Shown: positions 24,486 through 32,290 of the stretch, in pieces
Position numbering within the stretch: the first letter of the stretch is position 1
Layout: each line of letters begins with the position of its first letter
Source of the DNA: a virus
Lineage: Duplodnaviria; Caudoviricetes
Direction: 5' to 3' (one strand)
Length of the DNA: 64,000 bases
Virus record (IMG/VR): IMGVR_UViG_3300046674_000204
Coordinates: 764 to 64,763 of that record
Program-made: the position numbers and the translations under genes
The notes under the pieces: model-generated
Seen by the model: only the letters and a program-made list of their open reading frames with translations
Database searches by the model: none
What the model was told of the DNA's origin: nothing

Positions 24486-25022
24486 CTAAAAATCATAAGA
24501 AATTCCATTCGCGCACATGATGCGGTCAATATGGCGAGCGGCCTCATCCAGAGTTTCATGGAACCATTCGGCTCCAAAGGCGCGAGGAGCCTCAAATGTT
24601 TGAAGAATATGCGCCTCAAGTCTTTCCAGATCCACAAACTCTTCATTGATGCAAAATACGCGCTCTTCAATGATTGCATCGCCGGGTGACAAATCCCAGT
24701 TAGCATAAGCCCGTCGTCTGGATGACCATTTTCGGGTCATTCCAATCTTTACCTTGTTCGGGTGTTGTTTCACGACAACTGCATATATGTACAACCCGCT
24801 TCTGCCCGCAGGAGTGAAGTCATGGATGATACTCTGTTTCCTAGCTGGCCTTAGCGCCTCCAGCCGCTTCACATTCTTCTTAATTATTTTTGGCGAGGCA
24901 TTCGCGCTACTACGCGGGACTATACACTTGATACAGACGAAAGACTCGACAGAATCGTGGCTATAACCGCTCTGTTTGCCGCATACCGTACAGACGGCGG
25001 CGTGAATAACTCCGCTACTCAT
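24486..25022 (-). CDS. T5orf172 / GIY-YIG-family nuclease
   Basis: YIYAV...VKIGMT...LERLEAHIL...EWF; ATG at 25022 with AGGA RBS. Confidence 0.75.
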   Translation of the reverse strand: MSSGVIHAAVCTVCGKQSGYSHDSVESFVCIKCIVPRSSANASPKIIKKNVKRLEALRPARKQSIIHDFTPAGRSGLYIYAVVVKQHPNKVKIGMTRKWSSRRRAYANWDLSPGDAIIEERVFCINEEFVDLERLEAHILQTFEAPRAFGAEWFHETLDEAARHIDRIMCANGISYDF

Positions 25023-25044
25023 ATGTGTTCCTAGTGGATATCGC

Positions 25045-25311
25045 TTAACACCGCTGCCGAACAATTTCAGACCCAACAACCAGCACCGTTCCATCCTTGG
25101 CCGTGATCATCCACGTCACGCGCTTTGGTGCTCTGGGGTGGGCGAAGCATGGCGGAACGTCAGAAACCGCGTCTATGGCCCGCTGTGGGGCCGGGAGAGC
25201 CATGTCAGGCTTTGTCTGAGCCTGTTTGGCGTACCCCATGGCAACGAGGACGAGGTAGATGCTAAAGGCGATGCCGATCGGAGCCGATGCAATGAACAGA
25301 CGGCGCAGCAT
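25045..25311 (-). CDS. Hypothetical membrane protein
   Basis: N-terminal hydrophobic helix; TGATG coupling to upstream ORF. Confidence 0.5.
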   Translation of the reverse strand: MLRRLFIASAPIGIAFSIYLVLVAMGYAKQAQTKPDMALPAPQRAIDAVSDVPPCFAHPRAPKRVTWMITAKDGTVLVVGSEIVRQRC

Positions 25312-26003: not shown

Positions 26004-26075
26004 TGGAGCGGCGACCCGGAATCGAACCGGGCTTTTCACCTTGGAAGGGTGGTTCCTCACCTTGAGGATCGCTGC
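26004..26075 (-). tRNA. tRNA-Gly(TCC), 72 nt, compact D-arm, encoded CCA
   Basis: GCAGCGA...CCUC AAGGU GAGG...CACC CUUCCAA GGUG...CCCGG UUCGAUU CCGGG UCGCCGC U CCA; U discriminator fits Gly. Confidence 0.8.
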
Positions 26076-28308: not shown

Positions 28309-28604
28309 GCCGGCACCCTCCGGCGCTCGACTGCGATGACCTTCCCGCCACCCATGAAAATCTTCTCAGCAGCGGTTTTCGCGACGCTGTATTTTGTGCC
28401 GCCCATCGAAGATACCCCAGTGATAGGGCTGTTGAGGTATTTGAAAAACTCCTCATTGGCAGCTTTGAGAGCTTCGATCTCCGTCGGGAAGATGATGTCG
28501 TGACGGCCATTTCTCAGAACCGTGTTTTGGCTCTGGTGGACCTTGCGGTAATAAGCGATCCATCCAGTTTTGACGCGCTGTGCGCCCGCGGCGAACTCAT
28601 TCAT
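28305..28604 (-). CDS. Hypothetical phage protein
   Basis: ATGA-coupled 99-aa ORF. Confidence 0.6.
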   Translation of the reverse strand: MNEFAAGAQRVKTGWIAYYRKVHQSQNTVLRNGRHDIIFPTEIEALKAANEEFFKYLNSPITGVSSMGGTKYSVAKTAAEKIFMGGGKVIAVERRRVPA

Positions 28605-29650
28605 GCTGCGGTCCTTCCGTAGATTGCTGACAGAGCAACTTCCGTTCGCAAGATTGCCTTGCCTATCGCTTCTGGGATTTGCGGGACGACGGCGTCACCG
28701 AACGCTTCGACGATGAGACTTGCTGCAGATGTCCCTTTTGGAGTGCCAAGCGCAACGCGAGTGCCAGCCAACCAGGAGGAAAGCCCATCATCCAGCCGTA
28801 AGTGACCGGTAATGCCGTGGTTCCAGTCAGGCCATGGCTCTGAAGGATATTCGCAAGCGCCCTCGCTCCCGACCACCGTGGATCGTTGTTCTGCATCCTC
28901 GCTTTGATGTTCGGGCTGTGCGAGGTCATATCCGGCCCGTGATAAGCTTCCGAAGCGCGCGGCGTCGGCAGGTAGGATTCGTGCAACATGTGCCGAACCG
29001 TTCCTGTTCGCCCCGTCGCCCGGTGTCCACCAGCCTTCATGTCCGACGCCCGCGGCGTAGACAGTATCATCCGAAATGGATAGGTCGAACCCGCACCGCC
29101 CCCTGCCCCATCCTTCATTCCGTCCGAGGCCATCGGGGTCGGCAACTTGCTCGACATCGCATCCGATGATCCAGCATCGCGGCCGCTCGTGATTGGCTCC
29201 GATGTCGCCAGCACGGACCACGAACGACCAGCAGGCGTAGCCGAGGGCTTCCAATGCAGCGAGGACGGCGTCAGCTCCCCGAGTTCTGAGATTAGAGCTG
29301 TTTTCAAGAGCGAACCAACGAGGACGGACTTCTCCGATAATGCGGACAGCCTCGAAGTAGAGGCCGCTGCGTTCGCCTTCGACGCCTTTGCCCTTGGTAT
29401 TGGCGCTGCTGATGTCTTGGCAGGGAGGGCTTCCGACGACGACGGACGGAAGTCGTCCGAAATCTCGAAGAAGTTGATCTGCTGTGAGCGTACAGACATC
29501 GTCATAAATACGAACCTCTGGATTATTTTGCCGGTAAAGCGCCCGGCGCCAGTCGACGAACTCGCAAGCCGCTATCGTGCGGAACCCGGCACGGTGCATT
29601 CCGAGAGACCAGCCACCAGCCGCAGCGCTGAAAAGGTCAAGAACCTCCAT
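28601..29650 (-). CDS. dcm: DNA cytosine-C5 methyltransferase, alpha subunit
   Basis: Motifs I (DLFSAAAGG), IV (SPPCQ), VI (LENS), VIII (HERPRCW) and X (FGDAVVPQ); no motif IX in this frame. Confidence 0.88.
   Translation of the reverse strand: MEVLDLFSAAAGGWSLGMHRAGFRTIAACEFVDWRRALYRQNNPEVRIYDDVCTLTADQLLRDFGRLPSVVVGSPPCQDISSANTKGKGVEGERSGLYFEAVRIIGEVRPRWFALENSSNLRTRGADAVLAALEALGYACWSFVVRAGDIGANHERPRCWIIGCDVEQVADPDGLGRNEGWGRGRCGFDLSISDDTVYAAGVGHEGWWTPGDGANRNGSAHVARILPADAARFGSLSRAGYDLAQPEHQSEDAEQRSTVVGSEGACEYPSEPWPDWNHGITGHLRLDDGLSSWLAGTRVALGTPKGTSAASLIVEAFGDAVVPQIPEAIGKAILRTEVALSAIYGRTAA
28663..29505 (-). CDS. Nested out-of-frame beta subunit of the C5 methyltransferase
   Basis: 280-aa same-strand ORF inside dcm with three L(P/S)TPxAS(D/E) repeats and motif-IX-like WMMGFPPGW; true start uncertain. 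Confidence 0.72.
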   Translation of the reverse strand: MTMSVRSQQINFFEISDDFRPSSSEALPAKTSAAPIPRAKASKANAAASTSRLSALSEKSVLVGSLLKTALISELGELTPSSLHWKPSATPAGRSWSVLATSEPITSGRDAGSSDAMSSKLPTPMASDGMKDGAGGGAGSTYPFRMILSTPRASDMKAGGHRATGRTGTVRHMLHESYLPTPRASEAYHGPDMTSHSPNIKARMQNNDPRWSGARALANILQSHGLTGTTALPVTYGWMMGFPPGWLALALRLALQKGHLQQVSSSKRSVTPSSRKSQKR

Positions 29651-31089
29651 CAGAACAACTCCGCCGGCCGCTCATGCGCCATAGAGACATAGCGGGTGTA
29701 TCGGCCCTCGAATTTCAGCTTCTCGCGGATTGTAGGATCTCCAAATCTTGATTTTATCACGCCTATCTCGGCGATCCCTTCGATGTCGCTGCCGAACACC
29801 TTGTGGATTTTCTTCCAATCCTGATCAGTAGCGGCGATAGCCTCGCGCTCAGCTTTGTACTTCTCGGCGCGATAGAGGAAGAGGATGGCGTCATAGTCAG
29901 CCCTGGCGCCCTCCCCTCCGTAAAGATCCGCAGCGATCGGCCTTGGGTTGTCACGACGCGTTCCAAAGCCGTTGCGCTGGTTCAGCACGAGGAAAGCCGA
30001 TTCCGTCTCATCCGCGAGGGCCTTCAGTTCAACGGTGATGTCACTTGAGATACGGTCGGCGGAAAGCTTGGCATCAACCGGCTTCACCTTGCCGATATGA
30101 TCGATAACGATGAATGGCGTCATGCCATTGGGATGCTTCTTGATGAATCGGCGCGCATAGGCCTTGAGTTGTCCGACGCCTTCACGCTGGCACCGGATGA
30201 TCTCAAGCGGCTGCTGGTTGACCCATGTAGCGAAGAGGACGCATTTCTCGCGCTCTTGGTCCGTCATCAGACGCATCGGCTCATCTTGTTGCTTTACGCT
30301 GATGCCATGAACCTGGGCGATCATCTGGCGAATGCACTGATAAGCAGACTGGTCATAGGACAGGAAGAGAACGGCGTGGCCAGCGACGAGGGCGTCATAG
30401 ATAAGCTGGACCGTGAGGCTCGTCTTGCCCTCTCCCGAGGATGAAAGAAGCCCATAGAGGTTGCCGCCGGCGAAGACGCTTTCGGAGAGAACGCGGCGGA
30501 TCTCTTCAAGATCAATCGTCACGCCCTTGACGCCGCCACGCTTGCCAGAGGCGTTGAATGCTGAGAGATAGGAGTCGCCAGCCGCCTTGGTCGCGACAGT
30601 CTCCGAGAAGCGCGCTCTTAGGTCCTTCAGGCGACGTTCCATCTGTTCGATCTCATCACCCAAGGTGAGAAGGCTATGCCCTTCCTTGGCCATGCTGGCG
30701 GCAAACTCGGCCTCTCTGCCAAGCTCCCGAGCCAATGTCATGCCCTTGATGATCTGGAGGCAAGGCTCGTAGCGCGTAGCCATAGTGGGCGTCAGGCCAG
30801 CGGTCATCAGCCGTGCCAGATAAGCCGATGGCGAGATATCCAGACCTTGGAGTTGCTTGGGAACGAACGGCTTGAGAGAAACCGCATTGATATGCTGATG
30901 CCCGGCATGAAGCGTCAGAGCAGCGGCAAAGATCGTCTTATGTAGATCCTCAAGAAAATCATCTGCGACCAAGCCGCATTCGCTGATCAGATCATTGTTG
31001 GCGATGATGCATGACAAGACTGTTTGCTCGGCTTCAAGCACGTCCTGATCGGTGATCTTGTCCATGAAGTCGCGGGGCATATTCGTCAC
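29650..31089 (-). CDS. dnaB: DnaB-like replicative helicase
   Basis: EAEQTVL N-terminus, SSGEGKTS Walker A, IVIDHI, LNQ, PIAADL, D..LFLYR, KSRFG. Confidence 0.88.
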   Translation of the reverse strand: MTNMPRDFMDKITDQDVLEAEQTVLSCIIANNDLISECGLVADDFLEDLHKTIFAAALTLHAGHQHINAVSLKPFVPKQLQGLDISPSAYLARLMTAGLTPTMATRYEPCLQIIKGMTLARELGREAEFAASMAKEGHSLLTLGDEIEQMERRLKDLRARFSETVATKAAGDSYLSAFNASGKRGGVKGVTIDLEEIRRVLSESVFAGGNLYGLLSSSGEGKTSLTVQLIYDALVAGHAVLFLSYDQSAYQCIRQMIAQVHGISVKQQDEPMRLMTDQEREKCVLFATWVNQQPLEIIRCQREGVGQLKAYARRFIKKHPNGMTPFIVIDHIGKVKPVDAKLSADRISSDITVELKALADETESAFLVLNQRNGFGTRRDNPRPIAADLYGGEGARADYDAILFLYRAEKYKAEREAIAATDQDWKKIHKVFGSDIEGIAEIGVIKSRFGDPTIREKLKFEGRYTRYVSMAHERPAELF

Positions 31090-31730
31090 GCATCCCTCCC
31101 GGCATAGAGAATTATGGGAGCGCGAGGCAGGCGCGGCGCTTCAGTCTGTGATCTAGCCCTCAGCCCCGCCGAGATTTTAGCTTTGATCTCGGGCGTCATA
31201 ACGTGGCCAACCTGTTTGATAGATTTCCCTTTTTTCGCCTCGCTCAGCCTCTTGCATGCCTCTTCAGACCGGCGTTCTCCTGTTTTCGCAGCGCTGATCT
31301 TCCGACGCGTTTCGTCACTGAACTGGCGACCCTTCAGGGATGCGCTGATCAACTTTCGTTGCGTATCGCCTACTGTGCGATCTCTCTTCGACCACCCGCG
31401 CTTAGCCGCTAGGCGCATGGCTTCGATGGTTTCAGTGGAGTGCTTGTGCCCTACATTTCGGCCAGCAGTGGGAGAAAGATTGAGCCGCGGCTTGAGGCGG
31501 TCAATGGCGTCCTGCTCATGAATCAGTAATTCGGATTCATCGCACTCGCGCTCGACCCTGCAGGACGGCTCTCCATGCTTGTCAAACACACGCTGAAGGA
31601 AGCTGTTTGAGTGGGTTCCCCGCTTCATGTCCGCAATGTGTCGAAGGACGCGGCGTCTCATGTGCTTAGACGAGCCGACATAAATCCCACTGGGGAATTC
31701 AAGGATGTAAACACCTGGGGCGTTCTTCAT
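31086..31730 (-). CDS. GIY-YIG homing endonuclease with NUMOD3 repeats
   Basis: GVYIL...YVGSS...R...HSNSFLQR...EQ...LNLSPTAG; HSTETI and FSDETRRKIS repeats. Confidence 0.85.
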   Translation of the reverse strand: MKNAPGVYILEFPSGIYVGSSKHMRRRVLRHIADMKRGTHSNSFLQRVFDKHGEPSCRVERECDESELLIHEQDAIDRLKPRLNLSPTAGRNVGHKHSTETIEAMRLAAKRGWSKRDRTVGDTQRKLISASLKGRQFSDETRRKISAAKTGERRSEEACKRLSEAKKGKSIKQVGHVMTPEIKAKISAGLRARSQTEAPRLPRAPIILYAGRDA

Positions 31731-32290
31731 TCCTTTCCCTCCCAATAGAGCCTAGGGGTGTAATGAGCGTCGGCAATCGGTCCCCATACCAGCCAGCAAT
31801 GATCCTCAGTTCCCGTAGTGCCGTCCAATGTCCAGCTTATCCGGTCGACGAGATTGATTTTCGCCATGAAGCGAGGATTGTCCCGGAACAGGTGATGGCG
31901 CGTTTTACCGAAGTCGAATTTCGCTGTGAGCAGTAGCGCCACAAGACCCTTGCAGCGAGTTAGAGCGTATTCGGCGAACAGGCGCGCGTCCCGGTTCTGC
32001 TTGCCATATGGAGGGTTGGTGATGATCGCATCGCTATATGGCCAGCCCTCCTTTGGCTTGAGGAAATTGTAGATATGATCATGATCGCGGTCGTATCTGA
32101 CGATGTCCGAAGTGATCACAGACTTTGCCTGCTCCCGGAGAACGTCGGCCATGAGATGATTGCCGGCCGCCGGCTCCCAGACATCAAGGCCGTCGACAGG
32201 GAAGTTGCGCAGAAGCGCTTCCGTCACCCACGGCTCTGTCTGGTAGAGATCATTTTCGATGCGGGCGTATTTTGAGGCGACCACCGTCAT
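31727..32290 (-). CDS. Amino (N6-adenine-type) DNA methyltransferase
   Basis: DLYQTEPW, WEPAAGN SAM motif, ITNPPY catalytic motif. Confidence 0.8.
   Translation of the reverse strand: MTVVASKYARIENDLYQTEPWVTEALLRNFPVDGLDVWEPAAGNHLMADVLREQAKSVITSDIVRYDRDHDHIYNFLKPKEGWPYSDAIITNPPYGKQNRDARLFAEYALTRCKGLVALLLTAKFDFGKTRHHLFRDNPRFMAKINLVDRISWTLDGTTGTEDHCWLVWGPIADAHYTPRLYWEGKE

Follow-up and report, generated by a model that had tools for sequence, protein, structure and literature searches.

Can one stretch of phage DNA encode, in two reading frames of the same strand, both chains of a single enzyme? Long same-strand overlapping genes with two functional products are rare in bacteria and phages and are excluded by gene callers. 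Here we report the analysis of such a candidate in a 64,000-nucleotide stretch of DNA (the window) from the IMG/VR virus record IMGVR_UViG_3300046674_000204, a linear record of 64,763 bp that is 97% complete according to CheckV and nearly all of which the window covers. A C5 cytosine methyltransferase gene on the minus strand, inside the replication module of this phage, encodes a protein of 349 amino acids (aa) in frame A, hereafter alpha, and contains a second open reading frame (ORF) of 280 aa in frame B, hereafter beta. We consider it likely that this single stretch specifies, through two same-strand frames, two polypeptides that jointly form one C5 methyltransferase. Both frames are kept open in homologs, the start of beta is conserved, the selection on the two frames is complementary, and beta is built from cassettes. 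A previous inspection of the letters alone (the sequence-only reading) had listed motifs I, IV, VI, VIII and X in the 349-aa frame, and three TP repeats together with WMMGFPPGW in the nested ORF; all five alpha motifs can be read directly in frame A, and the coordinates and motifs of the nested frame proved correct (Table 1). The dual-coding region, put there at about 840 bp, measures 843 nt, or 80% of the frame A gene length, and the beta stop lies 62 nt ahead of the end of alpha.

Within its own genome, the methyltransferase gene is an extreme outlier for openness of the +1 frame, beyond what chance would give. The window contains 56 open frames that span 200 codons or more. In this gene the open +1 stretch is by far the longest, with 302 codons or a fraction of 0.85; the runner-up stretch has 170 codons, the median fraction is 0.25, and the +2 frame of the alpha gene is open for 65 codons only. 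A tblastn search with frame B returned three Rhizobium phages, each match lying in the +1 frame of an annotated methyltransferase gene. To avoid selecting for frame B, homologous loci were fetched by frame A alone, which provided 47 loci, 35 of them from IMG/VR and 12 from genomes of Rhizobium, Metarhizobium, Ensifer, Shinella, Sphingomonas, and one gammaproteobacterial metagenome-assembled genome. Exclusion of seven partial loci (L009, L010, L013, L041, L046, L047, and L049) left 40 complete ones; the set used below comprises 39 of these (L037 being set aside), the window, and two of the Rhizobium phages found via frame B. In all 42 loci, an ATG at alpha codon 45-51 is followed by 228-444 open codons in frame B; the open stretch of the third frame is limited to about 65 codons. 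An interruption of the nested frame in close homologs had been named in advance as the observation that would speak against a second chain; the frame is uninterrupted and its start conserved in every one of these complete loci. The conservation extends to L048, a locus with only 36% frame A identity whose motif I has the canonical form DLFAGIGG; the nested frame there still has 253 codons and ends with WLMGFP.

The beta ATG is compensated in its position and has a Shine-Dalgarno-like purine run ahead of it. A frame-B stop at codon 47/48, immediately upstream of the ATG, is present in 15 of the 42 loci, and where the Tyr-Asp-Asp codons lack an ATG, a CAT-GTx (His-Val) sequence five codons upstream provides one. 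Across 36 loci, the region upstream of the beta ATG has a median pairing energy with the anti-Shine-Dalgarno sequence of -5.0 kcal/mol vs. -2.7 kcal/mol at other in-gene positions (p=5e-10), with the reservation that a generic anti-Shine-Dalgarno sequence was used and that taking the best of up to three ATGs introduces a slight upward bias. We also considered whether the arrangement stems from erroneous sequencing or from a pseudogene in which two frameshifts compensate each other, and ruled this out, as the same arrangement is present in dozens of independent contigs and in isolate genomes.

Two homologous loci have an irregular structure. In L037 (1998-3204), an indel in a G-rich run of the first TP cassette (DGAGGG...) swaps the frames, so that alpha and beta are broken at one point; either erroneous sequencing or slippage in the homopolymer could explain this. 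In the Sphingomonas locus L007 (2001-3689), about 150 extra codons, in frame for alpha, are inserted between the GFP-motif zone and motif X, and this insertion truncates beta at ...WMLGYRPG.

The selection acting on the two frames was analyzed using four-fold degenerate sites and codon periodicity. In 38 distinct sequences, the heterozygosity at alpha four-fold sites is 0.60 before the beta start (n=23) and 0.32 over codons 52-165 (n=55, p=4e-6); over codons 71-145 it is 0.27 (n=37, p=1e-7 vs. 0.60), with many invariant sites. For beta, the corresponding heterozygosity is 0.134 in the N zone that overlies alpha motifs IV-VIII, 0.522 in the TP-module zone in the middle, 0.452 in the GFP-motif zone, and 0.139 in the tail, where it is pinned by alpha. 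Codon periodicity follows frame A in the N zone, frame B in the TP-module zone (B3 0.543, B1 0.41, B2 0.365) and in the GFP-motif zone, and again frame A in the tail, and the GC content by codon position shows the same switch. The better-conserved frame along the gene is thus A, then B, then A. Because the four-fold patterns of the two frames mirror each other, constraint acts on both frames over alpha motifs VI-VIII and on beta alone in the middle of the gene. Two-frame codon conservation in homologs, the check that the sequence-only reading had proposed, revealed complementary constraint in frames A and B.

The part of alpha that overlies the middle of beta is under a constraint of another kind. 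The alpha spacer has no stop codon in 36 of 36 distinct loci, whereas 0.75-8.5 stops are expected under synonymous shuffling of beta; the median fraction of such shuffles without an alpha stop in the spacer is 0.0185, and the third frame has 1-13 stops in the same region. Therefore, selection maintains the read-through of alpha to motif X but does not act on the sequence of the spacer itself.

The beta chain belongs to a large group of proteins, nearly all of which are unnamed and without Pfam domains. Its relatives include 284 database proteins at E<=1e-3, while cluster representatives number 375 at E<=1e-3 and 108 at E<=1e-10; the protein atlas entries obtained in the search are unnamed clusters only, mostly viral. 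Common to them are the N-terminal part and, on the C-terminal side of a variable TP module array, the sequence ...LPxTYGWMMG(F/Y)PPGW, in which residues W238, G241, P243, and W246 of beta are nearly invariant among 49 beta sequences. About 11 recurrent types of TP cassettes were distinguished, with 2-7 cassettes per protein in varying order and three, of cassette types A-A-D, in beta of the window. Insertions between relatives are entire beta cassettes, and frame A reads the same DNA as filler rich in G, R, D, and E. The beta homologs are thus mosaics of shuffled cassettes, and the TP array is probably the real DNA-recognition domain of the enzyme. Multispecific phage C5 methyltransferases of the SPR, phi3T, and rho11s type carry tandem short recognition modules between motifs VIII and IX, which are exchanged in a cassette-like manner, in single chains that use one frame; the TP array likewise consists of tandem shuffled cassettes, but it is located on a separate subunit encoded in an overlapping frame.

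Single-chain forms that fuse the two frames were absent among proteins of 491-2000 aa, which is weak evidence by the rating of the search tool itself. PF00145 was matched by only one of the 120 best beta matches of near length, P0065, which is an A-then-B frameshift chimera, and P0234 is another such chimera. Both contain motifs I and IV in the alpha frame followed by the beta frame, without motifs VI, VIII, and X; their contigs are presumably frameshifted near motif IV. These were the only 'fusions' encountered.

The alpha chain matches PF00145 (E=3.6e-31) by residues 1-168 only, corresponding to positions 1-165 of the 324-position profile, and does not cover the whole profile with its motifs I-X, whereas canonical genes in related genomes match positions 2-323. 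It also matches phrog_363 over residues 1-338 (E=1e-50), and its motif X reads FGDAVVPQ in frame A. In the AlphaFold model of alpha, the predicted local distance difference test (pLDDT) scores are 74-96 for residues 1-170, 78-86 for residues 320-349, and 24-32 for residues 174-296. Alpha alone is thus predicted to be a folded catalytic domain, followed by a disordered segment (residues 174-296) and a C-terminal helix, and its 'variable region' is best read as a mere spacer rather than a recognition domain.

Modeling of the alpha-beta complex gave scores of 0.91, 0.90, and 0.90, and the best of three controls scored 0.00. Among 80 solved complexes, 58 attain the score mark passed here, as do 2 among 110 mismatched pairs; this calibration is rough in the present case, where our own alignments were used. 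In these runs, the contact agreement was at least 79% and the partner pLDDT at least 58. The modeled interface places beta residues 56-101 against alpha residues 305-343, with the beta helix 59-79 on the C-terminal helix of alpha (328-336), and beta residues 229-263 on alpha residues 305-325 and 269-300. This prediction speaks for binding between alpha and beta. The predicted docking of the beta helix and hairpin on alpha would give the doubly constrained N zone a role; it agrees with the described effect of N-terminal deletions in the beta chain of M.EcoHK31I, which weaken its binding to alpha (PMC2836561).

We infer that beta is translated, that the two chains bind and are both needed for activity, and that beta sets the specificity. 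In the proposed mechanism, translation of beta would start in the +1 frame at the internal ATG within alpha codons 45-51 using its own ribosome-binding site, and its N-terminal helix and hairpin would dock on the C-terminal helix of alpha. The TP cassette array would most likely read the DNA target, and the motif IX-like GFP motif would complement alpha. Beta is then probably the DNA-recognition subunit of alpha and more than a donor of motif IX.

A precedent for such an enzyme is M.EcoHK31I, a YGGCCR-specific heterodimer. This C5 methyltransferase is reported to require alpha and beta chains, the latter being encoded in another frame within alpha (PMC2836561), and a 2012 paper still named M.AquI and M.EcoHK31I as the only exceptions to monomeric C5 methyltransferases (PMC3404938). 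The sequence-only reading had invoked this precedent, with a motif IX-bearing beta chain in an alternative frame within the alpha gene, and it is as stated in these sources; the same architecture at the present locus is supported by the open frame in 42 of 42 loci, by purifying selection on beta, and by the complex model (0.90 vs. 0.00). As described for M.EcoHK31I, alpha bears motifs I-VIII and X in one frame, and beta lies wholly inside alpha on the same strand, in another, conserved frame; the beta chain of M.EcoHK31I carries motif IX, which WMMGFPPGW resembles as a short pattern. For M.EcoHK31I, the literature assigns the predicted recognition domain to the alpha chain and motif IX alone to the beta chain. 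At the present locus, residues 174-296 of alpha are unconstrained and modeled as disordered, and the conserved modular TP array is on beta. Our beta also differs in spanning 80% of alpha and in beginning near motif IV. M.AquI is likewise described as a natural C5 methyltransferase of two polypeptides (PMC3404938), but in its linear type of split both motifs IX and X are on the second chain, whereas at the present locus alpha retains motif X and the beta gene is nested out of frame. Artificially split M.HhaI, M.SssI, and M.BspRI can form active enzyme from N- and C-terminal fragments, as the same source reports (PMC3404938); the present arrangement is natural and dual-coded instead of engineered. 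On the comparative and modeling evidence, the locus is best read as an M.EcoHK31I-like two-chain C5 methyltransferase whose probable recognition region is on the nested beta chain.

Several results weigh against this assignment. Beta matches no Pfam or NCBIfam family; comparison with the PDB, by sequence or by the beta profile, gave nothing below E=0.1, and a Foldseek search of the PDB with the stand-alone beta model gave no match at E<=0.001. An hhalign comparison of the beta alignment with three canonical C5 methyltransferases from related genomes (L051, L052, and L058) gave a probability of 0.1, and the positive control with the alpha alignment gave 99.5%. The stand-alone beta model is poor (pLDDT 57) and is confident only at residues 60-105, the helix and hairpin, and 200-260; the passing score of the complex may stem from likeness to solved monomeric methyltransferases. 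Because the loci share kinship, the counts across them are not independent events. When alpha codons were shuffled synonymously, a median of 0.51 of the shuffles left frame B stop-free over motifs IV-VIII, and its openness there is unsurprising by itself. Finally, in some relatives the same bases give GFP in both frames, e.g., DGFPGR in A and MGFPVD in B. As for the suggested resemblance of WMMGFPPGW to motif IX, the sequence fits the (L/M)xGFP(D/P)x(Y/W) core of the three canonical enzymes and is nearly invariant, but this is a short-pattern likeness, and the profile and fold comparisons gave nothing. As these comparisons were empty, the link of beta to motif IX and to a recognition domain rests on this short pattern and on gene logic.

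In the 'short' relatives L066 and L067 (the 'short' set is described below), the bases GGGTTTCCC encode Gly-Phe-Pro in both frames. The same nucleotides there write two well-conserved signatures, VGRLVDGFPGRLDRLK in alpha and NPxWVDWLMGFPVDWT in beta.

The lack of significant sequence, profile, or fold likeness of beta to a recognition domain or motif IX, and the largely disordered state predicted for beta on its own, would also be expected if beta were a real, translated overprinted protein that is not a methyltransferase subunit, such as a regulator or counter-defence protein sharing DNA with alpha. We regard this as unlikely, given that alpha would be left without a folded DNA-reading region between motifs VIII and X, that the complex model puts beta on alpha with scores the controls do not approach, that beta is nested within C5 methyltransferase genes across every lineage examined, and that M.EcoHK31I is a precedent for such a subunit. 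The A, B, A order of the better-conserved frame is the canonical single-chain order, which could point to a double ribosomal shift, in which ribosomes would leave frame A for frame B past motif VIII and return to frame A past the GFP motif, producing one canonical chain with motifs I-VIII, the recognition domain, IX, and X; the residues W-L-A in both frames at the second junction fit this explanation as well. It is nonetheless improbable, as it requires two opposite shifts, leaves the stop-free spacer of frame A in 36 of 36 loci needless for a shifted ribosome, and does not account for the conserved ATG and Shine-Dalgarno-like site located ~115 codons upstream of any useful shift point, in a region where frame B is constrained; no slippery heptamer was seen at the second junction, although no systematic search for shift signals was made. 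It is hardly credible that frame B is open by chance, as a by-product of a GC-rich gene from which alpha is the sole product: long alternative frames do occur at 57% GC, and the stretch over motifs IV-VIII is open in about half of the synonymous shuffles given the alpha protein, but the comparative data already contradict it through a frame that stays open in all 42 loci, even where alpha identity is as low as 36%, and in all but one of the 74 distant genes, a codon periodicity that follows frame B, beta four-fold sites that vary freely in the middle, insertions that are whole conserved beta cassettes, and the top rank of the gene among +1-openness outliers in its own genome.

The two-chain architecture that we favor seems to extend well beyond the relatives of the window. 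Searches with the distant beta-like proteins P0192 and P0170 led to nine viral loci, in eight of which the beta-like ORF occupies the +1 frame relative to an ORF that bears C5 methyltransferase motifs. An alignment of four distant alpha proteins matched more than 578 IMG/VR stretches, including 560 confirmed relatives. From the best 80 of these 560, we obtained a 'short' set of 74 complete, distinct genes with motif X; frame B is open over at least 60% of the gene in 73 of them (median 0.79 vs. 0.21 for the third frame), the exception, L088, having one frame-B stop. A strict motif pattern is present in 55 of the 74, and inspection of eight of the 19 pattern-negative genes revealed xMGFPxxW variants in all eight. 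A tblastn search with one 'short' beta revealed 87 isolate phages, with matches located under features named DNA methyltransferase or hypothetical protein, and with hosts from Mycobacterium (37), Stenotrophomonas (7), Salmonella (6), Propionibacterium (6), Vibrio (5), Bacteroides (4), and others. In the P22-like Salmonella phage S9-5 (Lederbergvirus), a 244-aa methyltransferase gene contains a 247-aa +1 ORF ending with NPQWVEWFMGWPIGWTEL; its beta-like protein matches 1,677 database clusters at E<=1e-5, and the 120 best listed are all named "hypothetical" at most. No source name listed for these matches or for those of the window's beta mentions M.EcoHK31I. When complete E. coli genomes were searched at the DNA level with the gene of a relative, no match was obtained. 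The nested frame appears to characterize a large group of phage methyltransferases as a family, in which it is unannotated. No paper describing it as such was found in the full-text literature, a search that covered neither subscription journals nor REBASE notes.

Two of the distant loci have irregular frames. The ninth viral locus, L063 (677-2003), has several frame changes: in one frame, motifs I-VI run into the beta-like TP region, a second contains motif VIII, TP modules, and the GFP motif, and the third contains motif X, whose preceding segment is duplicated. Degeneration of this copy or an error of assembly may account for the pattern. The locus of Mycobacterium phage Llama (L152, KM402757, 833-1592) is annotated as gp74 and gp75, both named 'DNA methylase'; a single frame change after motif VI shifts alpha and beta together, which leaves pieces in all three frames, and the gene is either broken or frameshift-dependent. 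Other mycobacteriophages have one annotated methyltransferase gene each.

Whether most 'short' phage and prophage C5 methyltransferases are obligate two-chain enzymes, with a hidden +1 recognition subunit whose cassettes set the target or targets and evolve specificity by shuffling, is to our judgment evenly balanced. If so, the class would take in the genes of at least 560 IMG/VR stretches and 87 isolate phages, including a P22-like Salmonella phage and mycobacteriophages. The TP cassettes would set the target, possibly several at once, and their shuffling would create new specificities, with the overlapping part of alpha merely kept stop-free; the recognition domain of M.EcoHK31I would have been assigned to the wrong chain. 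Confirmation would also mean that phage methyltransferases annotated as a single small protein are two-subunit enzymes, that thousands of database "hypothetical proteins" (284 clusters, 375 representatives, and 1,677 clusters in the above searches) are recognition subunits, and that specificity prediction for such enzymes has to be based on frame B. Two parts of one enzyme would be encoded in about 840 nt here and in up to about 1,330 nt in relatives, which offers a natural system for studying frame-sharing constraint, with one zone constrained in both frames, one in beta only, and a spacer selected for openness only.

Table 1. Features of the nested methyltransferase locus and neighboring genes, with positions in the window; the invariance of alpha residues was judged on an alignment of 34 alpha sequences
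Feature	Position	Strand	Basis or remark
Alpha gene (frame A, 349 aa): C5 methyltransferase catalytic domain, spacer, motif X helix	28601..29650	-	ORF, PF00145, phrog_363, AlphaFold
Alpha motif I, DLFSAAAGG	29612..29638	-	Nearly invariant in alpha alignment
Alpha motif IV, SPPCQDIS, catalytic Cys77	29408..29431	-	C77, Q78 invariant
Alpha motif VI, ALENSS	29294..29311	-	E116 invariant
Alpha motif VIII, ANHERPRCW	29171..29197	-	H154, R156, R158, W160 invariant
Alpha spacer, residues 166-275	28826..29155	-	Open, sequence unconstrained, predicted disordered
Alpha motif X and start of C-terminal helix, FGDAVVPQIPEAIG	28661..28702	-	G318, V321, P323, Q324 invariant; within predicted beta interface
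Beta gene (frame B, 280 aa), +1 of alpha, wholly within alpha	28663..29505	-	ORF, homologs, selection signatures
Shine-Dalgarno-like GAGG, 9 nt upstream of beta ATG (29503-29505)	29515..29518	-	Read from sequence
Beta residues 61-103, helix and beta-hairpin, predicted alpha-docking element	29197..29325	-	pLDDT 76-85; overlaps alpha motifs VI-VIII
Beta TP module 1, KLPTPMASDG	29119..29148	-	Recurrent cassette type in homologs
Beta TP module 2, LSTPRASDM	29038..29064	-	Recurrent cassette type
Beta TP module 3, LPTPRASEA	28945..28971	-	Recurrent cassette type
Beta motif IX-like element, LPVTYGWMMGFPPGWL, contains WMMGFPPGW	28765..28812	-	Codon periodicity follows frame B; in predicted interface
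Beta C-terminal tail, over alpha region before and through motif X	28666..28764	-	Codon periodicity follows frame A
DnaB-type helicase gene	29650..31089		Stop codon overlaps alpha ATG
GIY-YIG/NUMOD3 homing-endonuclease-like gene	31086..31745	-	Between DnaB helicase gene and 187-aa ORF
187-aa ORF	31727..32290		phrog_799, partial match
tRNA-Gly (anticodon TCC)	26004..26075	-	Sole tRNA found in window
202-aa ORF	24486..25094	-	T5orf172/MUG113 domain, GIY-YIG-like superfamily

Besides the helicase gene, the surroundings of the methyltransferase gene include a 99-aa ORF that comes after alpha, and the terminase and portal genes further downstream. The 187-aa ORF has no Pfam match and matches only positions 202-378 of the 458-position phrog_799, a PHROG DNA methyltransferase family.

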